DNA from: an uncultured Bacillales bacterium
GTDB lineage: Bacteria; Bacillota_I; Bacilli_A; RF39; UBA660
Reading direction: 5' to 3'
NCBI GenBank assembly: GCA_948433085.1
Contig: CAOJDP010000001.1
Coordinates: 15,642 to 79,641, forward strand
Length of the DNA stretch: 64,000 nucleotides
Part shown: positions 10,869-27,687 of the stretch, piece after piece
How the letters are laid out: each line of letters opens with the position of its first letter
How positions within the stretch are numbered: the first letter of the stretch is position 1
Notes under the pieces: generated by a model
What the model saw: only the letters and a program-made list of their open reading frames with translations
What the model was told of the DNA's origin: nothing
Database searches by the model: none
Made by a program: the position numbers and the translations under genes

Positions 10869-11396
10869 TAGTACTATTTTACCAAATTTTTAAATTTTCC
10901 TCTACTAATTGTATAAAAAAAATTTTTTTTCTCATAAAGAAATGGATATTCGCAGATATTCACGTAAAAAGGATCATTATGGTCCTTTTTATAAATTCTA
11001 TTTTCCAATGCAAATTATTTACGATTTAGATGCCAATTATATGATACTTAATTTTAGGGAATAATATAAACTGTATATTTTGTAGCATAATCAAAATCAA
11101 TCCCTTCATACAGTATGAAGCGGAAGTTGTAAAAGTATTGCTGTAAATTCTACAAGTAATACGCAGGATTCATCCCAAATACATACTTTGGCTAGATACC
11201 ATTGACAATCCAACATTGTTACATAGAATAAAGAGTGATAGCCACTTGTAGCTGTTGAAAAATAGAAAGTATCCAAAACAGATACTCTTATAGGATTCCC
11301 AAATAAGTCAATGCAAAACTTATTTATGTGAGAAAATCATAAAACAGGAAAACATATCTCTACAAAAGAAAATACAGGGTTTACTTTTCTATTTAC

Positions 11397-11825
11397 CTAT
11401 ATTTTCTTACACAATTCATCCAGATTGATATTATAAAATTGAGCTAAGCTGATTAATTTATCAATAGGAATAGACAATTGTTTTTTGTAGTACTTATAAC
11501 AACATGATACACTCACACCAATTGCTTGTGCGATTGTTTCAAAAGTATGTTTATGTTTCATTTTCAGTTCATTTAATGTAGCTATGATAGAATCATAGTC
11601 CATAGGTTTGATAGGGATATCTTTACGTTCCTGTTCCAAACCTAATAAATATGCTAGTGTAGTTTCATAGATAATCGTTAATTCATCTAGTTTTTCTAAT
11701 GGAATGATTATATCTCCATTTTCCCAATTCGCATATGTAGAACGATTCACATTTAACAAGTTGGCGATTGTATTTTGACTGTAATCATGATCTTCTCTTA
11801 GGTCTTTTATCCTTCTAATATACAT
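11397..11825 (-). CDS. XRE-family regulator with two HTH modules
   Basis: The N-terminal HTH is YSQNTIANLLNVNRSTYANWENG. A second HTH-like segment is HTFETIAQAIGVSVSCCYKYYKK. Confidence 0.65.
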   Translation of the reverse strand: MYIRRIKDLREDHDYSQNTIANLLNVNRSTYANWENGDIIIPLEKLDELTIIYETTLAYLLGLEQERKDIPIKPMDYDSIIATLNELKMKHKHTFETIAQAIGVSVSCCYKYYKKQLSIPIDKLISLAQFYNINLDELCKKI

Positions 11826-14965: not shown

Positions 14966-15742
14966 ATGGCACGTCATAAAGTGGAAATTTGTGGCGTGAA
15001 TACTGCGAATATTAAAGTTTTAAATACGGAAGAAATGTATGATTTATTTTGTAAATTCAAAAATGGAGATGAATGTGCAAAAGAAGAATTAATCAATGGG
15101 AATTTAAAATTAGTACTATCCATTTTAAAAAAGTACAATAATCGTACAGACAATATGGATGATTTATTCCAAATTGGTGTAATTGGATTAATTAAAGCAA
15201 TTGATAATTTTGATTTAGAAAAAGAAGTCAAATTTTCTACCTATGCAGTTCCTATGATTCTAGGAGAAGTGAGACGTTATTTACGTGATTCTGGTAGTAT
15301 TCGAGTTGCACGCAGTATTAAAGACAATGCTTATCGTGCAATGAGAGCAAAAGAAGAATTGACAAATACCTATGGAAAAGAACCTACAATTGCAGAAATT
15401 GCAAAGAAAGTAGAGCTATCCGAATATGAAGTAAGTAATGCTTTAGAATCTATGCGCGATACGATTAGTATGTTTGAGCCTATTTATAACGATGGTGGTG
15501 ATACTATCTATTTAGCAGACCAACTCGAAGATAAAAAAGATACACATTATTCTCTAGATATGAAAATTTCTTTGAAAAATGCCATGGATCGATTAAAAGA
15601 AAAAGAACGCTATATCTTATATGAACGTTATATTTATGGAAAAACCCAATTAGAATTAGCAGAAGAAATAGGCATTTCACAAGCACAAATATCTAGATTA
15701 GAAAAAAGTGGTTTAGACCATATTAAAAAAATGATTTCATAA
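14966..15742 (+). CDS. sigG: Forespore-specific sporulation sigma factor SigG
   Basis: MARHKVEICGVNTANIKVL..., GNLKLVLSILKKYNNRTDNMDDLFQIGVIGLIKAIDNFD, FSTYAVPMILGEVRRYLRD and FEPIYNDGGDTIYLADQL are collinear with B. subtilis SigG, including the characteristic N-terminal KVEICGV. Confidence 0.9.
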   Translation: MARHKVEICGVNTANIKVLNTEEMYDLFCKFKNGDECAKEELINGNLKLVLSILKKYNNRTDNMDDLFQIGVIGLIKAIDNFDLEKEVKFSTYAVPMILGEVRRYLRDSGSIRVARSIKDNAYRAMRAKEELTNTYGKEPTIAEIAKKVELSEYEVSNALESMRDTISMFEPIYNDGGDTIYLADQLEDKKDTHYSLDMKISLKNAMDRLKEKERYILYERYIYGKTQLELAEEIGISQAQISRLEKSGLDHIKKMIS

Positions 15743-16457
15743 ACTGTTTGGCTCTCTGAATCTCTTCTAGAGACATCTGGAATTGATAACAAATGGCGGT
15801 TTCCCTTTTGGATAGCCATTCACTTTGTGCATGTGTTTGGATAAAATGATTTTTTGTATAGTAAGTAATCGCATCCAATTGGATATAGCGGATTACGCCC
15901 AAATAAAGACTCAGATACATTCCTGTTGGAAGAAAAGGATCATGCCTTTCTTCTTTGACCCATTCTTTATAATGGCATGTGATATCCTTACTTTGTGATA
16001 GAATTTGATGTAGATAAAAATCCATTAATAGACAATGGTTTTTGGCTTCTTTGTGGGATAAACTTATTCCGTCTGCTAGTAAAATGCTAGAATATCCTGT
16101 ATTTGTTTGATTTAACATAACCTTTTTATCATCAGCTGATAAAAAAGGAACAACATGTGTACGTTGATGAAGACGGGAATGTTGATTAGAAAAATAATAA
16201 AGTTGTTGCTCTTGGGTACTATAAATGGTAGCATTTTCATCCATTAAAAAGGATTCTAATCTCCCTTCTTTATATAATAGAATATAGTCTAAATAAGGTT
16301 TAAAGTATGTATACGATTGTTCGAACGAGGAGAAGTCAAAATCGACAGTTCCTTTATCACTTTCATAGATTTCCTGCATAACACTTTGTAATTCGTAATA
16401 TGGAACTTTTAGATATTTTCTTTTATCTCCTTCTATATAAGATAATATTGTTTGCAT
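15723..16457 (-). CDS. Hypothetical protein
   Basis: A 244-aa ORF with a GGGG-containing RBS region. It is convergent with sigG, overlapping by 20 nt at the 3' ends. No family recognised. Confidence 0.45.
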   Translation of the reverse strand: MQTILSYIEGDKRKYLKVPYYELQSVMQEIYESDKGTVDFDFSSFEQSYTYFKPYLDYILLYKEGRLESFLMDENATIYSTQEQQLYYFSNQHSRLHQRTHVVPFLSADDKKVMLNQTNTGYSSILLADGISLSHKEAKNHCLLMDFYLHQILSQSKDITCHYKEWVKEERHDPFLPTGMYLSLYLGVIRYIQLDAITYYTKNHFIQTHAQSEWLSKRETAICYQFQMSLEEIQRAKQFMKSFF

Positions 16458-17679: not shown

Positions 17680-18351
17680 TTATGCATCCTTTAAGAACGA
17701 TTCAATATATACACTAATTTCAGCATGAATGTCTTCAATAGAGCGTAAATTTTCTTGCACACATTCAATGGTATGGAATTGATAGCGTGTTGCCAATTCA
17801 AGATAAGTACATTCTGCATGGTACAAATAATGATTATCGCATTCATTTTCATCCAATACACTTCTATTCTGTTTGAGCTTAATAATGGTTGCAATTGGTA
17901 GATGTAAAAAAAGTGAAATATCTGGCTTAGGGAGTTCCAATAAATCAAATTCAAGCCTTTCTAACCATTGATACATTTTCATTCTCTCTTCTTTTTCCTC
18001 TAATTTTGCTCCTTGATGTGCCATATTGGAATAAACATAACGATCTAGTATAACATGTATCCCATGCTCTAATAACCATGTAATCTTATGAATATTATAA
18101 AGACGGTCTGCTGCATAATAAAGTGCAGCTACTTTTGGATTTACTTGCACTGCTCCTTCTTGAAACCAACTTTCACTTACATTTCCAAGATAAGGTCCAT
18201 GAATGATTTTGCCAGTTGGAGAATCATAATTTGGAAATGAAAATTGTTCTACTTGATATCCCTTATTCCGTAATGTATTTACAAGTAATTTTGATTGTGT
18301 CTCTTTGCCAGAACAATCAACACCTTCTATCACAATAAGTTTTCCTTTCAT
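17680..18351 (-). CDS. Thymidylate kinase-family protein
   Basis: The P-loop is IEGVDCSGKETQ and there is a DRYVYSNMAHQG motif. The length of about 220 aa fits. Confidence 0.6.
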   Translation of the reverse strand: MKGKLIVIEGVDCSGKETQSKLLVNTLRNKGYQVEQFSFPNYDSPTGKIIHGPYLGNVSESWFQEGAVQVNPKVAALYYAADRLYNIHKITWLLEHGIHVILDRYVYSNMAHQGAKLEEKEERMKMYQWLERLEFDLLELPKPDISLFLHLPIATIIKLKQNRSVLDENECDNHYLYHAECTYLELATRYQFHTIECVQENLRSIEDIHAEISVYIESFLKDA

Positions 18352-18358
18352 TTCCTAC

Positions 18359-18964
18359 CTACTCCTCTATTATTTGATTCATCTCATTGAATTTTATATC
18401 CAAAAATTTACGGCTTGCTAAATAATCACACATATGCACAAATTTTTGATATTTATTGCTTGGCTTAGGTAAAATCACATTCCCTCTATAATCAGTATTC
18501 CAAGGCCCCATATGTGATTCTATTACATTGCAAAGAAATAAAAGTTCATTGTCAGTTAAAGTCAATTTCTCTTTATGCGCTTTTATATAATGAGCAATTA
18601 AAAGAGGATGTTCCGCAACTACATACTGATTATGTTCCTTCCCATGCTTTAATCCATCATGGAGAATTAAAGCAAATAACATTAAATCCTTTTCATCTTG
18701 TGTAAATTTACCTGTAATAGAATCACTTTGGTACAACTCATATGCAATTCGTACCGCAGCTTTAGTATGGCGTATCAATCCCCCATTCCCTAATGAAAAA
18801 TTGGGATGATATTTCCCTGTTGAACTTGCTGGTATTTCAAAAAAATAATCTGGTAATAATTCTACTATCATTTTTAAGTTATCTCTATATTTTTTGTTCT
18901 TAATATAGGTATATTCTTGATGAAATATCTCAGCTTTACACTTTGTTTGATTCATTTTCTTCAC
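18359..18964 (-). CDS. HD-domain phosphohydrolase
   Basis: Metal-binding H...HD pattern LFALILHDGLKHGKEHNQ. Confidence 0.6.
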   Translation of the reverse strand: MKKMNQTKCKAEIFHQEYTYIKNKKYRDNLKMIVELLPDYFFEIPASSTGKYHPNFSLGNGGLIRHTKAAVRIAYELYQSDSITGKFTQDEKDLMLFALILHDGLKHGKEHNQYVVAEHPLLIAHYIKAHKEKLTLTDNELLFLCNVIESHMGPWNTDYRGNVILPKPSNKYQKFVHMCDYLASRKFLDIKFNEMNQIIEE

Positions 18965-20135
18965 CGATAAAACACATTAAAATGTCATTGGACTGATAAA
19001 GTGCCTGCTTGGGGATTTTTATCCAACCATTCTGTATGTGTAATTTCCCTTTCTTATTTAATTCTTCGATTGGAAAAACAGAAGCAATCTCTTTTCCATA
19101 TTTTTGTTTAAATTTGTATGCACTTACTCCTTCTATTTTTCGTAAGCCTAATATCATTTCATTTTCCATATTGATTCTTTCTGTCATTTCCACTTTTTCT
19201 AAACAGAAATTACCATCACAATAATCTTTTAAACTACGTGTATTGGTATAACGAATGGAATGAATATATCCACTTGCCCCTAATCCAAATCCATAATAAA
19301 ATTCATTGTTCCAATACGTTAAATTATGTTTAGAAGCATAATTTTTTTTTGCAAAATTGCTAATTTCATAATGTTTATATCCATTTTCTTCTAATGTTTT
19401 GCAAATTGTTTGATACATTTTGAAATCTAACTCTTGACAAATTGGTACAATATGACAGATATGAAATAACGTATTGGATTCTATCATTAAAGAGTAAGTA
19501 GAAATATGGGGCACATCTAATTTTAAAAATTCCTTTATATCCTCTTTTACTTCCTGTAATGTTTCGTTGGGTAATGCATACATAAAATCTAAATTAATAT
19601 TATCCAATCCGATACGTTTCAATAACGCAATGGTTTCTTTTATTTGTTCTTTTGTATGATGACGATTCATCGCTTTTAAATGATGTTCATGAAATGTTTC
19701 TACCCCAATACTAATACGATTCACTCCATATTGTTGCATATACTTAATTTTGGTTTCATTTAAAGATTCTACATTACATTCAATTGTATATTCATAATTT
19801 TTTTGCTTTTGAAATGTATCTATCAATTTTAGAAGTTTCAAAAATTGCGCATCATTTAACGCAGTTGGTGTGCCACCTCCTACATAAATTGTTTGTAAAT
19901 ATTCATTTTGATATGCAGTATGAATTTCTTTTTCTAATGCTTGTAGATATGGAGTTACCCAGTTTTCTTGATAGAGAAATTTTGCAAAATCACAATAATG
20001 ACAAATAGAATTACAAAAAGGAATATGAATATATGCAGCTGTAATATTTTTTGCAATAGATACTTTGCAATCCTTTGTTAAATCATAGTCTTCTTTTACT
20101 TGTGTTTTTGATTTCATATAATCCCTCCATTTCAT
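18936..20135 (-). CDS. hemW: Radical-SAM heme chaperone HemW (HemN-like oxygen-independent coproporphyrinogen oxidase family)
   Basis: CxxxCxxC radical-SAM motif CNSICHYCDF and HemN-like collinearity. It lies in the usual lepA neighbourhood. Confidence 0.8.
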   Translation of the reverse strand: MKWRDYMKSKTQVKEDYDLTKDCKVSIAKNITAAYIHIPFCNSICHYCDFAKFLYQENWVTPYLQALEKEIHTAYQNEYLQTIYVGGGTPTALNDAQFLKLLKLIDTFQKQKNYEYTIECNVESLNETKIKYMQQYGVNRISIGVETFHEHHLKAMNRHHTKEQIKETIALLKRIGLDNINLDFMYALPNETLQEVKEDIKEFLKLDVPHISTYSLMIESNTLFHICHIVPICQELDFKMYQTICKTLEENGYKHYEISNFAKKNYASKHNLTYWNNEFYYGFGLGASGYIHSIRYTNTRSLKDYCDGNFCLEKVEMTERINMENEMILGLRKIEGVSAYKFKQKYGKEIASVFPIEELNKKGKLHIQNGWIKIPKQALYQSNDILMCFIGEENESNKV

Positions 20136-20168
20136 TATAACAAAAAAAGTTTCGTTTCCAAAACTTTT

Positions 20169-21878
20169 TTATGGCTCAACAGGTGTTGCATGATACTTTT
20201 TTACAAATTGACCTTTTTCATTTCGACTTTTATTCATACAAATGTGTCTTTTATGGATTTGCTGTTTGTTATGAATATAACGGATTGCTTCGGTATCTAA
20301 TAACTGTGTTGTAAGTGGATGATATAAATAATTATGTATAGTATCTGCAGTTACACCAAATAGATTTTCTAATCTTTTTGTATCATAATTCTTTTGTTGC
20401 AAATAATAAAGAATCGTTTGCGTAGAACATAACATTGCTTCTATTTGTGAATCAGAAACATCTAGTTCATGAAACGAAAATTTACCTTCAATCAATTGAA
20501 CAAAATTTTCTTCTATTTTAAACTTCTCATAACAATCAGAATTTCTATAATGTTTCCATAACCCTACCAGTGTTTTAAACTTAGATAATTTTTGTATATT
20601 TTTTTCTAATCTACTCTTTCGCAGTTTTTCTAATTCCAAAATTTTCTCTAATTCACAGCCAGCAAAATTAGATCTAAAATAATTTATAATTTCCCATTCT
20701 TCTACTTGAATCTGTGCTGCTAAATCTCGGAAAAGAATAAAATTTTCTTGATAGTATGTATATAAATTCATTCCTTGGTTTATACATAACTCTATTTTCT
20801 TTGCATCATAGACAATTTCAGAAATAGATTCAAAAAAATGACATCCAAACAATTGGTCTATTTCTTTCCCATCTAGCAAATTAATCCCATATTTTTTTTG
20901 AAATTCTAATAAAGTGACCCCAGACATATTTAAATAGGATGCATACAGCGTTAAATAATATGCTACTTTAGTTATTTTATCAGATGGAAAACAATGAAGA
21001 TTATTGATAGAAATAAGACTTCTGATTTTAAGTTTACTCATAATTTTAGGTCCTACTAATACCTTTAACCATTCACTGTTCAAAGTCTCTTTCATATGCT
21101 CCCATCCAATTTTATTTTTTTGATTCGCCTCTTCTTTAGTTAAACTATCATTAGATAATCGATCTTTTATCCATTTTAATCCTTTTATTTTTCGCATTGA
21201 ATTCTCTTTTTTCAAGGTGGCAATCATGGAATCGATTCGTTCTCTTTCCTCTTCTGTTAATGCAAATATACGGCCTAAATTCCGCCATTGACACATTCGC
21301 ATAAGTCCCCTATTTCTTAGCTTATTTAATTCAAATAATTTGTCAATTTCCTGTTTTGTGAGTTCCTCTGCCATTAATGTATCAAATGTAAAAATAATAT
21401 CATGTTCTTCTAAATGGTAATACGCAGCAAGCGCATCAAATGTAACATTATGTTCTAAAAAATAAAAATAAAATTTCATCTTGTCTCTTTGTCTCAATAA
21501 TGTAATATTATTGGCTTGCATTTTTTCAAAGCTATAATTGGATATCCCCTTTACTAAATAATCACGATTTAAAAGCTGGCAAATTTGGTCTACTGTATAA
21601 TTTTTTTCACGAGCAACATCTCCAAACGTTAGATTACCTGCTTTTAAAGTTCGATAAACATCTAATGCATCTTTATTGGCTTTTCTTTTTTGATTTTCCT
21701 CTTTAAACTTTTTCAATAAATTAACGTCTACATGATTCGCATAATAATAAAGTTGCTTAGAAAATTTACTTTCCTCTATTTCATAGTCACTTAGTAATTC
21801 TTCAATTGTAATATTACGCATCTTTGCTTTCTTATCAAAAAACGCTTGTTTTATTTTTTCCAATTCAGTCATATCCAT
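20169..21878 (-). CDS. Large hypothetical protein with multiple HTH-like segments
   Basis: 569 aa. The N-terminal MRNITIEELLSDYEI and several further helix-turn-helix-like stretches occur. No catalytic motifs recognised. Confidence 0.5.
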   Translation of the reverse strand: MDMTELEKIKQAFFDKKAKMRNITIEELLSDYEIEESKFSKQLYYYANHVDVNLLKKFKEENQKRKANKDALDVYRTLKAGNLTFGDVAREKNYTVDQICQLLNRDYLVKGISNYSFEKMQANNITLLRQRDKMKFYFYFLEHNVTFDALAAYYHLEEHDIIFTFDTLMAEELTKQEIDKLFELNKLRNRGLMRMCQWRNLGRIFALTEEERERIDSMIATLKKENSMRKIKGLKWIKDRLSNDSLTKEEANQKNKIGWEHMKETLNSEWLKVLVGPKIMSKLKIRSLISINNLHCFPSDKITKVAYYLTLYASYLNMSGVTLLEFQKKYGINLLDGKEIDQLFGCHFFESISEIVYDAKKIELCINQGMNLYTYYQENFILFRDLAAQIQVEEWEIINYFRSNFAGCELEKILELEKLRKSRLEKNIQKLSKFKTLVGLWKHYRNSDCYEKFKIEENFVQLIEGKFSFHELDVSDSQIEAMLCSTQTILYYLQQKNYDTKRLENLFGVTADTIHNYLYHPLTTQLLDTEAIRYIHNKQQIHKRHICMNKSRNEKGQFVKKYHATPVEP

Positions 21879-22057
21879 TCCCCCTTTTTGCGTATATACT
21901 AGTATAACAAAAAAGACAAAAATGTCAAATTATTGCTTTACTTGAAATACAAGGATAAAAGTACAAGGAAGCCCTTTTGTGAAATATAATGTTCATAAAA
22001 CATTCCTACATAGACTCCAATCAACCTAACCTTTATTATGTTTAAAAGAATGATAAT

Positions 22058-23350
22058 CTACTTTTTAGAAGGATTTCCACTCTGATTCATACTGACCTTT
22101 ACTTTTTGATGCTCTTTTGAATATAAAGTAGATGCATACTTTAAAATAGAGTAACTATACTGGAATGGGAACAAACTTCCTTGTGAGGTTGTAGTTAAAA
22201 AATGCATATATAAAATATTGGCCATTTCAATTTGTGATTCATCAATCCCTAGCGCAAGTGCTGTTTTTTCATAGGAAAAATTATGAATTGCAAGTTCCCC
22301 ACATAAATAATAAGGCATAATATTTCCAATCTCTATATGTGCTTTTAACCATTCAATTTTTTGTTCTACTTCCTTTTTATAATCGATATTATTTCCACAC
22401 AAATGACTGTACGAATGAGAATTTGAAACATGATTATTTTGGACAGCCATATTCATTTGTATTTTTTGTAAAACACAAGGTTGAAGCAAAGAAGCATACT
22501 GCTGAACAGATTGTAATATTTTTATAATCTCTTTTTTCCTTCGATTTTTTGTTTCTTGTATCCTATCTATATTTCTATCTCTATAGTAAGCTGAAATCAC
22601 ATTTAAATCTGAAATTGCCTTTGGCGTTGCACAATAAGTATTTTCTACTACAATCCTTCTCAAATAGGGATCTTTCATCCAGTATTGACCATATGGAGGC
22701 CTTTGGGTTTTACGAATATGATCTATTTGTTGTTTATGATGCATAATTAAATCTATAATCATTTGATTTTCAATTTGCAACTTTAAATTGGAAAAGAAAT
22801 ATTTATCTAAATTTGCATACTGAATAAATTCTTCTTGTGTAAATAAACTATCTAGATATAGTACAATTGTGCGATAAAGCATTTGATATGGAACATTCTC
22901 TTTTGTGCATAACTGTTGATAAACATTTTTTCCCTTATTTTTTCCCAATTTACTCACTAAATAATCCAAATCAAATAGATGGAGAAAAAATAACATTTGA
23001 TTTACTTTGTATAATTGACAATACTCTGCTAGTTCCTTCTTATTCAACAAAACAGAATTCACAATGTATCTCAAATCTTCACTTTCCATACAAATAAAAT
23101 TTTTTTCGTATGACTTTTTTAATTGTTCTATATTTTTTTCTCTTTGTCTTGCAATGGCTTCCCATGAATACATTCCAAAATGACTTATAATGGTTTGTTT
23201 TCCTTCTTCACTTAAAACATATGTAACTTCTTTTTCACCAATATTTAGTAATGCAGCAATTTCTGTTTCTAACTTTCCCTCTAAATAGTATTGAATCGTA
23301 GACCGCATTACAGATAAAGCACTTACAAATTCTTTTTCTTTATTCATCAT
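22058..23350 (-). CDS. Large hypothetical protein with sigma-70 region-4/LuxR-like HTH segments
   Basis: 430 aa. An N-terminal HTH ([17 protein letters not shown]) and a C-terminal HTH ([20 protein letters not shown]) are present. The start overlaps the lepA stop by 8-11 nt. Confidence 0.5.
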
Positions 23351-25142
23351 TATTCATACTTAAAACAGATAAAAAGGCTTCTTGTGGTATCTCTACGCTT
23401 CCCACCATTTTCATCCGTTTTTTTCCCTCCTTTTGTTTTTCTAAAAGTTTTCTTTTTCTTGTCACATCCCCGCCATAACACTTTGCCAAAACATTTTTTC
23501 GTACTGCCTTGATTGTTTCTCTTGCAATGACTTTACTACCAATTGAAGCTTGAATAGGTACTTCAAATTGCTGTCTAGGAATTAATTTTTTTAAATTTTC
23601 AACGACTAATTTTCCTCTTTGGTACGCAAAATCTTTGTGGACAATCGTACTTAACGCATCCACTGATTCTCCATTTAATAAAATATCCATCTTTACTAAA
23701 TTACTACTTTTATAACCAATTAAATCATAGTCAAAGGATGCATATCCTTTTGTACTTGATTTTAGTTGATCAAAAAAATCATACACAATCTCTGATAGTG
23801 GAATTTCATAGTGAATATTCACTCTTGTTTGATCTATATATTCCATAGAAATATAAGTTCCTCTTTTATTTTGACATAACTCCATAATAGGACCTATATA
23901 TTCACTTGGCACAAAAATATTGGTTTTAATATAAGGCTCTTGCATATCTAAAATGCGTCCCTTATCTGGTAATTTGACAGGACTATCAATTTGTAGATGA
24001 CTATGATCTGTCAATTCTACATCATAAATAACAGAAGGACTCGTTGCAATTAAATCAATGTTAAACTCTCGTTCTATTCTCTCTTCTATAATTTCCATAT
24101 GCAATAATCCTAAAAAACCACAGCGAAAACCAAACCCCAATGCCTTGGATGTTTCAGGACTGAATTCCAAAGAAGCATCATTCAGTTTCAACTTCTCTAA
24201 AGCCTCCCTTAATTCAGGAAATTTGCTGGATTCAATTGGATAAATACCACAAAAAACCATTGGTTTCATTGGCTGATATCCAGGTAAAGATTCTGTATTT
24301 GGATACATAGCAGAAGTAATTGTATCCCCAACTTTTACATCTTCAATGCTTTTAATACTTGCACATAAATAGCCAACTTCTCCAGTTGTTAGTTCTTGTT
24401 TTTTTTCTTCTTTTGGCGTATGGACACCCAATTCAATTACCTCATAACTAGCACCAGTTGCATTCATTTTGATTTTATCCCCTATTTTCACTTTTCCATT
24501 TACCACACGAATAGAAGTAATAATACCTCTATAAGCATCAAAATAACTATCAAAAATTAATGCTTGTAAAGGATTTTTTTCCTTTCCAGTTGGAGCTGGC
24601 ACACGGTCAATAATCGCTTCTACTAATGATTGAATTCCAATTCCATTTTTCGCACTAACAAGTAGTATTTCTTCTTCTTCGAAGCCTAAAGTATCTAAAA
24701 GTTCTTTTTTTACCCGTTCAGGATCGGCATTTGGTAAATCTATCTTGTTGATTACAGGAATGATTGTTAAATTGTTTTCTAAAGCAAGGTATAAATTCGC
24801 TAATGTTTGTGCTTCAATGCCTTGCGCCGCATCTACAACCAGAATCGCACCTTCACAAGCCGCTAAACTACGACTGACTTCATAAGAAAAATCAACATGT
24901 CCTGGTGTATCAATTAAATGAAGATGATAATCTTCATCTTTATAATGATATTTTAAAGAAACTGCATTTAACTTAATCGTTATTCCCCTTTCTCTTTCAA
25001 TATCCATACTATCTAATAACTGATTTTGTTTTTCCCTTTCTGAAATTGCACCAGTCAACTCTAAAATACGATCTGCAAGTGTACTTTTACCATGATCAAT
25101 ATGTGCAATGATAGAAAAATTTCTGATGTTTTCTTGTTTCAT
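23340..25142 (-). CDS. lepA: Elongation factor 4 (LepA)
   Basis: G1 motif [10 protein letters not shown], then DTPGHVDF and NKID, and the LepA-specific C-terminal region. Confidence 0.95.
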
Positions 25143-25250: not shown

Positions 25251-25595
25251 TTATTCTTCCATAAGTTGATTTAAAAATTTGAAGGTAGCATCTAATCCCT
25301 CTTGCACATACTTCCCTATCCCTTCTGATAATTTTAAACCCATATTAGATATCTTTGTTTGATAATTGATTTCCCTTTCTCCCATATAATCTTTGATATC
25401 TACATGCTTTCCCTCTGCAATATCTTGTTCAAATTGTTTAATTTTTTCTTGTGTCAATGTGACTCTTTTGTGTTGTTCAAATTCATAATATCCTGTTGCT
25501 TCTGAAACATAAAGTGCAAAAAAGGCGATAAAAAGACATAAAAACAATTTCCAAAATATCCGATTAGCTAATTTCTTTTTTTCCTCTGGTTTCAT
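25251..25595 (-). CDS. YqxA-like small membrane-anchored protein (DUF3679-like)
   Basis: 114 aa with an N-terminal TM segment. It sits between spoIIP and lepA, exactly where yqxA lies in B. subtilis. The call rests on synteny and size rather than a strong sequence motif. Confidence 0.4.
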   Translation of the reverse strand: MKPEEKKKLANRIFWKLFLCLFIAFFALYVSEATGYYEFEQHKRVTLTQEKIKQFEQDIAEGKHVDIKDYMGEREINYQTKISNMGLKLSEGIGKYVQEGLDATFKFLNQLMEE

Positions 25596-25599
25596 GAAT

Positions 25600-26631
25600 T
25601 CACCCCAAGTATTCTTGTATTATTGTAGCTAAAGCTTCTATTGTATTCATTACCTCTTCGATAGAATTATCAGTACCCCCACATTCAATTAAAACAGAAT
25701 TGGGGCTTAAATTTTGATTATAAATTCCATTAACACCTGGTCCCTCTTTCGTCATCACACCCCTACTCAAAGTAGGATATTTTTCTTTAATTTTATTAGA
25801 TAACGTATTGGCTAATGTAAGATTAGATTCTGCATTCTCATGCTCCATACCTACAACAAATAAAACCTTCGCATAACTTTTTCCGTTAATTACCGTAGTG
25901 GATGCAGTTTTGGGAATCGCATCCCTATGTAAATCAATCAATAATTTGATACTAGGATATTTATTTAATGTATCTGTAATAAAAAATTTACTGGCTTGAT
26001 AACTTTTAGAGTAATCCCAATTATTTAAATTTAAAAAGTCTGTAATATTAGAAGTTTCTACAATTGTTGGAATCCCCACTTTATTTAATTTTTCTTTCAA
26101 TAAATAAGAAGCCATTAACACATTGGGTGTGATATTATATTCTTCAAAATTAGCATTACTATACCCTTCCAATTGGTGCGTATTATAAATATAGACAAGA
26201 GGCTCTGTTACAACTGTAGGATTGGGATCTTTGATATAAACAGAAGGGTCTTCTAAAAAATTATCATTATCCTGTAATCCAGGGTCTTCTACTGACACAA
26301 CAGGATCTACTGGTGTTATTTCATTTTTCATTTCATATCCAAATACTGTCTCTAAAATACTAATTGGTTTTTTAAAATCTATATTAGATAAATTTTTTAA
26401 AAATCGATTGACAATATTATGATTGCTTTTTTCATAGAGTAAATGGTGATTGGAATCTTTAAGCAAGGATAAAATAAAAGCTTCATTGTTATCTGCTAAT
26501 CGGATATTTAAAAATAGTCCGATTATCCACTGATAAAGGAAAAAACATAAAATAAATATTACAACAAATTTAAGCCACGTATGTTTGTTTTTCTTCTTTT
26601 TTGAACGAAATTGTTTTCGCATATGTATCAC
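25600..26631 (-). CDS. spoIIP: Stage II sporulation protein P (SpoIIP)
   Basis: An N-terminal TM segment, then YIYNTHQLEGYSN, LLIDLHRDAI and GVNGIYNQNLSPNSVLIECGG (SpoIIP amidase-like signature). Conserved spoIIP-yqxA-lepA synteny supports the call. Confidence 0.85.
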   Translation of the reverse strand: MIHMRKQFRSKKKKNKHTWLKFVVIFILCFFLYQWIIGLFLNIRLADNNEAFILSLLKDSNHHLLYEKSNHNIVNRFLKNLSNIDFKKPISILETVFGYEMKNEITPVDPVVSVEDPGLQDNDNFLEDPSVYIKDPNPTVVTEPLVYIYNTHQLEGYSNANFEEYNITPNVLMASYLLKEKLNKVGIPTIVETSNITDFLNLNNWDYSKSYQASKFFITDTLNKYPSIKLLIDLHRDAIPKTASTTVINGKSYAKVLFVVGMEHENAESNLTLANTLSNKIKEKYPTLSRGVMTKEGPGVNGIYNQNLSPNSVLIECGGTDNSIEEVMNTIEALATIIQEYLG

Positions 26632-26699: not shown

Positions 26700-27185
26700 T
26701 TAATAGGGAAATTTTTTTATATCAAAAAAAACATTTTCTAGTGAAGCATCAGACGAACTTGTCTTACGAAAAATGACGGATACATTTTGGGGAGTTGTTA
26801 TGGACAACATTTTTTGTTGTACAAAATAAATTTCTCCTACATTTTGTAAAGTAATTTCGAGAAAATCAGATTGTGTTCCATTCACCTCTATTTGAATGGC
26901 AAGAACTGCATTTGTAGAAGAAAGTGTCTCTCTTAATCTTCCACTGATTGCAAGTTCATAACAGCCACTCTCATTTAAAGTAATTCGATTATTATTAATG
27001 AGGAAAATATTTGTATTATTTGGCAATTTTTTAGGACTAGAAGTTTGTAAAATACCAGCAGTTGAGGTATTTGCAAAATCTGTATACATAATTGCAGAAA
27101 TACCAGCTGGTCCAGTAGGCCCAGTTGGGCCTGTTTCCCCTATTGGAAGAACAAAATCTAAAATGTATTCTGAATTTGATTGCAT
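26700..27185 (-). CDS. Mini-collagen (G-X-T)-repeat protein with a C-terminal jelly-roll-like domain; putatively BclA-like spore surface protein
   Basis: I set the start at ATG 27185 (MQSNSEYILDFVLPIGETGPTGPTGPAG) because AGGAGG lies 7 nt upstream. This removes the overlap implied by the longer track ORF. It is a paralog of the adjacent gene, sharing ESGCYELAISGRLRET and SDASLE. Confidence 0.55.
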   Translation of the reverse strand: MQSNSEYILDFVLPIGETGPTGPTGPAGISAIMYTDFANTSTAGILQTSSPKKLPNNTNIFLINNNRITLNESGCYELAISGRLRETLSSTNAVLAIQIEVNGTQSDFLEITLQNVGEIYFVQQKMLSITTPQNVSVIFRKTSSSDASLENVFFDIKKFPY

Positions 27186-27195
27186 ACTTAACCTC

Positions 27196-27687
27196 CTATT
27201 TTGAATAAGGAAATGGTAATCTTTGAATTTGTAATGTGACCGCTTCAATAGATGCATCTGAATTACCATTCTTTTCGAAAACTAACATAACAGTTTGCAA
27301 AGTCCCATATTGCCCAATTTTTATTTGTGAAAAATAAGTTTCCCTCGCGCCTTGTTGTAATTGTACAGTAATTAAATTATTACTTATCCCACTGGTATTT
27401 CTTGTTCGCAATTTTAATGTTGCTCCATTCGCAGTAGTTGTTTCTTTTAATCTACCACTGATGAAAAATTCAAAATATCCTGTCTCTGTAAATTGAATAG
27501 ATTCGTTTGTTATTGTATAGATATTAGAATTGGATGGAAAGATAGTTGCACTAGAAATGGTAAGATTTTGAGCAGTCGTAGCATTATGATAGGAAACAAA
27601 TATTTTTGGTGCATGAACAATCGGTCCAGTAGGACCCGTCTCCCCACTTGGTATAATAAAATCTAAACAGTAATCATGTTCTTCCAT
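27196..27687 (-). CDS. Mini-collagen (GETGPTGP) protein; tandem paralog of the preceding gene
   Basis: MEEHDYCLDFIIPSGETGPTGP then a C-terminal domain with TGYFEFFISGRLKET and SDASIEAV, paralogous to 26700..27185. Confidence 0.55.
   Translation of the reverse strand: MEEHDYCLDFIIPSGETGPTGPIVHAPKIFVSYHNATTAQNLTISSATIFPSNSNIYTITNESIQFTETGYFEFFISGRLKETTTANGATLKLRTRNTSGISNNLITVQLQQGARETYFSQIKIGQYGTLQTVMLVFEKNGNSDASIEAVTLQIQRLPFPYSK

Follow-up and report, generated by a model that had tools for sequence, protein, structure and literature searches.

Two large proteins of a small Bacillales lineage occupy the lepA-hemW interval, and one of them repeatedly matches SpoIIID-like helix-turn-helix units

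In this article we describe two hypothetical genes, here called A and B, which stand between lepA and hemW in a 64,000-nucleotide stretch (the window) of contig CAOJDP010000001.1 from an uncultured Bacillales bacterium. The whole block is encoded on the minus strand. It opens with a spoIIP-like gene (25600-26631) and a yqxA-like gene of 114 amino acids (25251-25595), both taken from the list of open reading frames (ORFs), and continues with lepA (23340-25142), the anchor gene, coding for the 600-residue elongation factor EF4 (Pfam GTP_EFTU 1.5e-59, LepA_C 3.4e-52). Gene A (22058-23350) encodes a 430-residue, all-helical protein and was recognized by the ORF list, an AlphaFold2 model and its homologue clusters, while gene B (20169-21878) encodes 569 residues in which the family search, the alignment of the family profile with itself by hhalign and a unit profile revealed tandem SpoIIID-like helix-turn-helix (HTH) units and a conserved basic C-terminal tail. 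The block is closed by hemW, the gene of the radical-SAM heme chaperone (ORF 18936-20135; Pfam Radical_SAM 4.8e-32, HemN_C 1.5e-6), of which the start is most likely not position 20135 but the ATG at 20114, which a GGAGGG ribosome-binding site precedes.

The ORF list agrees with the preliminary description of this DNA, in which genes of 430 and 569 amino acids were placed between lepA and hemW and the first was said to overlap the lepA stop. The overlap is 11 nucleotides, the ATG of gene A being located 11 nucleotides before the end of the lepA stop codon; an overlap of this type is kept in all seven related loci, and no Shine-Dalgarno sequence was found when the start region of gene A was inspected. 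The overlap together with the lack of a Shine-Dalgarno sequence points to a translational coupling of gene A to lepA. The two ORFs represent real genes, since they are intact in relatives at only 44-46% (A) and 33-43% (B) amino acid identity and such lengths are not expected by chance at about 28% G+C. The G+C content of A and B (0.26-0.30) equals that of their flanks.

A and B are confined to one small lineage, and here the preliminary description, which called them lineage-specific, was right. Among 5.8e9 proteins gene A was found in five clusters, its own and four other 90%-identity clusters which are 44-46% identical to it, and an exhaustive HMMER scan of 1.84e9 representatives recovered 16 proteins of the B family, every one of them at E<=5.7e-13 and with nothing more remote. 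Neither gene is carried by any of 80 metagenome loci whose LepA is 60-85% identical to that of the window, no B relative was detected in a metagenome scan with the locus-derived B alignment A1, and a genome scan for relatives provided at least one locus (L007). The seven contigs which carry A (L001-L007) show the order lepA, A, B, an ORF of 57-62 amino acids and hemW as far as each contig reaches, the small ORF being seen in all but L007. LepA is 90-93% and HemW 63-68% identical in these relatives. Within the syntenic block no genes evolve faster than A and B, the other shared genes having 56-91% identity. The length of the B proteins varies from 406 to 633 amino acids and the members differ by whole modules. 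Two of the B genes show anomalies in the same region: in L001 an in-frame TAA cuts off the first unit (11382-11559), leaving a 32-residue and a 530-residue ORF, and in L007 an assembly gap with duplicated sequence lies at about 11400-11620. These may represent either N-terminal decay or assembly errors.

The interval between lepA and hemW was surveyed in sister lineages by a metagenome scan with the LepA of the window. It resulted in the above-mentioned 80 loci, 77 of them with enough downstream sequence, in which the gene directly after lepA was a tightly placed hemW in 22 cases, a SpoIIID-like gene in 13 and another gene in 42. All 13 loci with a SpoIIID-like gene after lepA have a LepA at least 69% identical to ours, and they cover six of the seven loci where this identity is at least 78%. 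The canonical protein is present in the slot of L009 and L014 (PF12116 1.8e-33 and 6.9e-34; the two scanned) and, according to a local SpoIIID profile (E 5e-42 to 8e-39), as a protein of 88-93 amino acids in that of L012 and L013; in these four loci it lies 29-57 nucleotides after lepA. Multi-unit slot proteins also match PF12116, namely those of L012 (146 amino acids, 8.1e-11), L020 (215 amino acids, 6.1e-17), L010 (216 amino acids, 1.3e-15) and L028 (347 amino acids, 8.6e-8). The full arrangement could be followed in L012 and L014, where lepA and spoIIID are succeeded by a spacer of about 55-60 nucleotides with a sigma-A-type promoter and then by a two-unit SpoIIID-like gene (156 amino acids in L014), behind which a hairpin, a T-run and GTTATA(A/C)T are located; L012 proceeds into hemW, and the contig of L014 ends before it. 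Of the two nearest outgroup loci, L010 (LepA 85%) has a three-unit SpoIIID-like gene overlapping the lepA stop as gene A does. In this contig (4915-7322) the three-unit gene is followed by two small HTH ORFs of 48 and 77 amino acids and then by a GDPD gene, and no hemW was found within 6 kb.

A and B therefore sit where sister lineages with 69-85% identical LepA keep spoIIID-family genes, and the punctuation around them is the same: the promoter TTGACA-17-TATA(C/A)T and the GGGGGA ribosome-binding site before the second gene, as well as the hairpin, T-run and GTTATAAT box before hemW, are common to the A/B loci and the sister loci, a sigma-A-type promoter equivalent to that of B preceding the second gene in L012, L014 and L010. 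The slot and its punctuation are conserved between the clades. In B. subtilis spoIIID presumably does not adjoin lepA. The earlier statement that lepA and hemW normally lie tightly together is borne out by the 22 tight loci among the 77 and by B. subtilis, in which the two genes form a bicistronic operon (Homuth 1996, as cited in PMC13495026); the gene block is also treated in bioRxiv 10.1101/212886.

In the window the promoter of B consists of TTGACA, a 16-nucleotide spacer and a TG-extended TATACT (21901-21928, minus strand; 11 of 12 consensus matches), and it fits the sigma-A consensus rather than the sigma-E type. It is followed by a strong ribosome-binding site, AAAAAGGGGGA, in the start region of B (21879-21889, minus). 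The promoter, with a spacer of 16-17 nucleotides across loci, and the AAAAGGGGGA ribosome-binding site are conserved in seven of seven A/B loci. The stop codon of B is immediately followed by a terminator-like hairpin with a run of seven T (20143-20170, minus; minimum free energy -10.4 kcal/mol, z -3.6), and the succession of A-run, hairpin and T-run is conserved at this place in five loci (-5.4 to -11.9 kcal/mol), though the stem sequences differ. The hairpin leads into the GTTATAAT -10 box of the next gene; the promoter-like site for hemW (20134-20161, minus) comprises TTGGAA, a 16-nucleotide spacer and a TG-extended TATAAT, corresponds to the consensus at 10 of 12 positions, and its -10 box is kept in relatives. 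Since B possesses its own conserved promoter and a terminator, it appears to be an independent transcription unit and only A would be coupled to lepA, thus the co-transcription with lepA proposed originally can be maintained for A, through its translational coupling, but not simply for B. The small ORF of 57-62 amino acids between B and hemW (L001 13182-13370; L002 10711-10899) is present in most relatives and there is none in the window, where hemW has about 25 extra N-terminal residues behind the GAGGGATTATATG initiation region (20114-20135) that is seen also in the relatives; the extra residues at a shared initiation region suggest that the small ORF was deleted or fused in the window.

The B family is strongly self-repetitive: alignment of its profile with itself gave off-diagonal alignments with E values of 3.1e-10 and 1e-6, and residues 135-181 recur at 371-416 (hhalign E 5.7e-5). 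A SpoIIID-like unit profile, built from 29 units with all A and B sequences left out, aligns by hhalign to B at five distinct places, all encoded on the minus strand. The first comprises residues 69-105 (ALDVYRTLKAGNLTFGDVAREKNYTVDQICQLL; 21564-21674, P 2.5e-4), at the equivalent place of which family members have sub-threshold HTH_24, HTH_5 and FeoC matches. The second, residues 134-188 (21315-21479, P 7.7e-5), is an HTH followed by a helix which ends in LNKxR and resembles the NKxER of SpoIIID; L009 and L014 have canonical SpoIIID proteins which align to it almost from end to end, and sub-threshold HTH_Tnp_4 or Sigma70_r4 matches fall on this unit in 9 of the 16 members. Residues 232-268 (21075-21185, P 3.4e-3) belong to a middle module which is absent from the family members of 406-407 amino acids, and residues 370-404 (20667-20771, P 0.028) repeat the 134-188 unit. 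The last unit, residues 489-539 (FGVTADTIHNYLYHPL...YIHNKQQIHKR; 20262-20414, P 5.6e-5), is the most SpoIIID-like. As controls, the reversed alignment gave P 0.037 and the best of 20 column shuffles P 0.2, so that at least three units of B match the SpoIIID-like profile beyond the controls. Sub-threshold Pfam HTH matches recur at the predicted units across the family. B is very probably a multi-HTH protein, as it had been described.

The region behind the last unit has pointed in the same direction. The most conserved motif of the family is RNEKGQFVKK in the tail (residues 552-561; 20196-20225, minus), recognized in alignments A1 and A3, with KGQFVKK invariant in A1 and conserved in A3; its counterpart in L042, L047 and L011, which are single-unit slot proteins, is the terminal (D/E)xxGKFIG. 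The B profile matches the 103-residue single-unit slot protein of L042 (L042_7801_8112) in its entirety, with the tail (E 1.6e-5), the ranks below L042 are enriched in slot SpoIIID proteins, and L042 was reached independently by a profile started from canonical SpoIIID (E 7e-5). A SpoIIID-like hidden Markov model scored 24.5, 18.3, 17.7, 15.6 and 14.2 bits on B-family members (best E 4.6e-6 at Z=4198), and the maximum over 1050 shuffled sequences was 10.2 bits. Residues 12-75 of B. subtilis SpoIIID aligned to B 489-546 with P 0.0079, which we regard only as a lead. A KG-x-Q/KGG-like basic segment is kept in the B members P0013, P0015, P0020, P0021 and P0025 and in L042, L047 and L011. Considering the profile-level evidence, a SpoIIID-like descent of B is quite likely.

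Gene A could be connected to HTH proteins less closely. In its AlphaFold2 model, built from five sequences, the protein consists of helices throughout, and HTH-like triads occupy residues 3-45, 90-125, 243-280 and 345-386. The weak N-terminal HTH-like unit (residues 18-48; 23207-23299, minus) is predicted with helices 3-23, 28-34 and 39-45 at a predicted local distance difference test (pLDDT) of 75-82; hhalign against a broad HTH-unit profile gave P 0.0057 for it, the sub-threshold Sigma70_r4_2 match of A (E 0.23) falls here, and its GKLETEI is invariant in the family. The similarly weak C-terminal unit (residues 345-386; 22193-22318, minus; helices 345-355, 360-367 and 371-386) is the most conserved block of the A family and forms a weak internal repeat with residues 7-42 (P 0.025). 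Accordingly, the multi-HTH character which had been claimed for both proteins has repeat and unit evidence in B and weakly supported HTH-like triads in A. The weak Foldseek list for A is dominated by LysR, MarR and sigma HTH domains. A was not significant against any multi-unit slot protein or a U7-type profile, and it was negative against B. subtilis SpoIIID. For A we infer descent from SpoIIID from its position only.

Searches of the family libraries did not reveal any other identity. Pfam and NCBIfam gave nothing above threshold for A, B, ten segments of them and the family members, and no enzymatic domain was seen among these results, in line with the original remark that an enzymatic motif is lacking; PHROGs and PADLOC had nothing significant for A and B, and no credible match was obtained among PDB sequences in profile searches with alignments A1, A2 and A3, a Tic110-like helical-repeat match (3.4e-4) being judged spurious. 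The two proteins had been regarded as a distant paralogous pair, which found no support: BLASTP gave nothing between A and B and two hhalign runs remained below 1% probability. The assignment to sigma region 4 or LuxR-like HTH proteins is not supported either, since no match reaches the Pfam gathering score. Sigma70_r4 does appear below threshold in 3 of the 16 B members (best 7.5e-4) and Sigma70_r4_2 in A (E 0.23, 11.6 bits against a cut-off of 25.7), but A and B have neither sigma region 2 or 3 nor a receiver or ligand domain, and the units of B fit SpoIIID-like profiles better and over more length. As for the suggested nucleoid-associated function, the isoelectric points of the A and B families lie at 6.1-8.9 with net charges of -6 to +8 over 400-630 amino acids; charge does not support this suggestion, and a strongly basic small nucleoid-associated protein is not what these values and lengths describe.

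SpoIIID is a sigma-E-dependent mother-cell transcription factor of B. subtilis which controls late sporulation genes. With this protein (PF12116) B shares, at the profile level, the HTH followed by an NK-x-R helix, its last unit with the basic tail aligns with a single-unit SpoIIID-like protein, and A and B take the positions of canonical spoIIID and of the SpoIIID-like gene of the sister lineages. The differences are considerable: SpoIIID is one unit of about 85-95 amino acids while B has about 5-7 units in 569 residues and A consists of 430 residues, both A and B stay below the PF12116 gathering score (27 bits) which sister slot proteins pass, the B of the window is without the RGG-type basic segment, and its promoter looks sigma-A-type instead of sigma-E-type. 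The multi-unit slot proteins of L012, L014, L010, L020 and L028 are closer in arrangement, having the same slot, an own promoter for the second gene and tandem SpoIIID-like units; they differ in the number of units (2-5), in that those of L010, L012, L020 and L028 still pass PF12116, and in size, A and B being larger, diverged beyond Pfam recognition and, in the case of A, without pairwise significance to them. A link to a characterised family, an outcome which the preliminary description had named as speaking against its own reading, was obtained for B, at the profile level to SpoIIID, and not for A. The synteny of the slot confirmed that none of the 80 loci (LepA 60-85%) carries A or B and also revealed spoIIID-family genes in the slot of the sisters.

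On balance we favour, with somewhat better than even confidence, the reading that the position after lepA is a home of the spoIIID family and that A and B were enlarged in place. According to this model, which is built on sequence comparison, the lepA-hemW interval of a low-G+C, spore-forming gut Bacilli lineage would be a two-gene slot, occupied in the sister state by a canonical SpoIIID of 83-93 amino acids and then by a two-unit SpoIIID-like protein, and both occupants would have become large in the clade of the window. B would be the positional counterpart of the two-unit gene, grown by internal duplication to about 5-7 SpoIIID-like HTH units, probably read from its own near-consensus sigma-A-type promoter and closed by the intrinsic-terminator-like hairpin, whereas A would stand in the position of SpoIIID itself, putatively coupled in translation to lepA. 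The insertion by which the genes were formerly thought to have been acquired explains the shared punctuation less well than such an in-place expansion of resident spoIIID-family genes. B, and perhaps A, may be DNA-binding regulators or architectural proteins, whose chained monomer-type modules could read composite or multiple sites. Monomers of SpoIIID bind DNA, using the HTH together with a basic region at the C-terminus (Himes 2010, as cited in PMC3789822), which makes the reading of DNA by chained modules the most likely mechanism; by analogy we infer DNA binding, and any role in sporulation, for A and B.

Several results weigh against the spoIIID-family reading. PF12116 has no match at E<=1 in A, B, the 16 B-family and the 5 A-family members, and no member of either family reaches the threshold of any Pfam HTH family. 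The B of the window itself scores only 3.1 bits against the SpoIIID-like model, therefore the link to SpoIIID rests on family-level and profile-profile evidence, and the local E values given above hold for a database of about 4200 ORFs. In this B the RNEKGQFVKK tail is kept but the basic segment of (R/K)GG type is deleted, both proteins have near-neutral isoelectric points, and the AlphaFold2 model of B from a single sequence (pLDDT 36.7) was unusable. That of A is mediocre (pLDDT 63.8, predicted template modelling score 0.38), Foldseek found nothing below E 0.55 for it in the PDB and a viral library, and hhalign of A against SpoIIID-like units, slot proteins and B units was not significant (P 0.049-0.3). 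Furthermore, iterated profiles drift to generic HTH domains, gaining an XRE-type ORF and sigma regions 3 and 4; part of the B signal may mean "HTH" rather than "SpoIIID", and as a consequence of this drift "SpoIIID-like" is better supported than proven. The XRE-type ORF lies in the window at 11397-11825 (minus), has 142 amino acids and two XRE-type HTH units, and was rejected as a SpoIIID relative and taken as profile drift.

The drift is also what an origin outside the SpoIIID family would lead one to expect. A and B could be lineage-specific multi-HTH regulators with a generic HTH likeness, found in the slot by coincidence or replacement, and the failure of PF12116 in every member and the lack of any significant match for A agree with this; it is nevertheless unlikely, since the B matches continue past the HTH into the LNKxR helix and the tail at the C-terminus and span all of L042, the highest ranks of the B profile are enriched in SpoIIID proteins of the slot, and both clades have kept the promoter and terminator signals by which the slot is punctuated. 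A bolder version of the SpoIIID relationship, in which giant poly-SpoIIID proteins would have replaced the classical one, A standing for SpoIIID and B as an array of 5-7 units, both serving as a new kind of multi-module DNA reader in the control of sporulation, is similarly improbable in our judgement, though it might also account for the lack of canonical spoIIID reported from some spore formers; a canonical spoIIID may be encoded elsewhere in the genome of the organism.

The HTH-like units might alternatively be degenerate and non-binding, with A and B as helical-repeat scaffolds, for example spore-associated ones, or with A as a protein associated with LepA or the ribosome. Their rapid evolution relative to the block (34-46% against 56-91% identity), the near-neutral isoelectric points, the KGG-type basic segment lost from the B of the window and the translational coupling of A to lepA could be explained in this way. 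We consider it still less probable, because the most conserved positions fall in the HTH-like units and the basic tail and nothing that was found indicates another activity. Finally, the few relatives and the fast evolution, together with weak Foldseek matches in the viral library which include phage sigma factors and HTH proteins, would be compatible with cargo of a mobile element or a prophage remnant between lepA and hemW. This can hardly be credited in view of the G+C content equal to that of the flanks, the identical gene order in seven loci, the lack of an adjoining integrase or transposase, and a slot whose regulatory signals are common to the sister lineages, nor did PHROGs or PADLOC return anything significant; on composition, synteny and these library searches, cargo of a mobile element or a defence system was rejected.

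SpoIIID is a core mother-cell regulator in endospore formers and normally a single small domain, and its multiplication up to about seven units would be an unrecorded architecture, the locus offering a natural experiment in chaining monomer-type HTH modules. Canonical spoIIID was reported to be missing from spore-forming Erysipelotrichaceae and Turicibacter (bioRxiv 10.1101/2022.02.25.481979; PMC13492147), which makes diverged multi-unit relatives candidate substitutes there; if the reading of the slot as a spoIIID-family home is true, relatives of this kind, escaping the Pfam and COG models, could explain the reported absences. Two hypothetical proteins have thereby become candidates for DNA binding and for expression during sporulation.

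The neighbourhood of the block is variable in other respects. Between the yqxA-like gene and lepA one or two extra genes of 350-357 and 242-255 amino acids, without Pfam match, are present in L001 (6250-8149), L002 (4157-6006) and L007 (7392-8150) and none in the window, so that both sides of lepA are variable in the clade. On the other side of the block, hemW is separated from the GDPD gene by an HD-domain-like and a thymidylate kinase gene in the window (17680-18964, minus) and also in L001; L004 and L007 have neither gene there. Unlike in Bacillus, hemW is not followed by hrcA-grpE-dnaK here. In L002, a long way from A and B, the genes that otherwise stand upstream of the guanylate-kinase-like gene have given way to a large serine recombinase (376-1866; Resolvase, Recombinase, Zn_ribbon_recom). 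The sole Rfam match in the window is the ribosomal protein L21 leader (RF00559, 60445-60512, minus, 42.4 bits). Adjoining spoIIP there is an ORF of 189 amino acids (26700-27269, minus) with a collagen-like GPT run (GETGPTGPTGPAG) and no Pfam match, which may encode an exosporium-type protein. A complete sigma-70-family factor of 258 amino acids with regions 2, 3 and 4 (14966-15742, plus strand) is 84-91% identical in relatives, and overlaps tail to tail with an ORF of 244 amino acids (15723-16457, minus) without Pfam match; this ORF is another fast-evolving gene, as it keeps only 48-52% identity in the same relatives.

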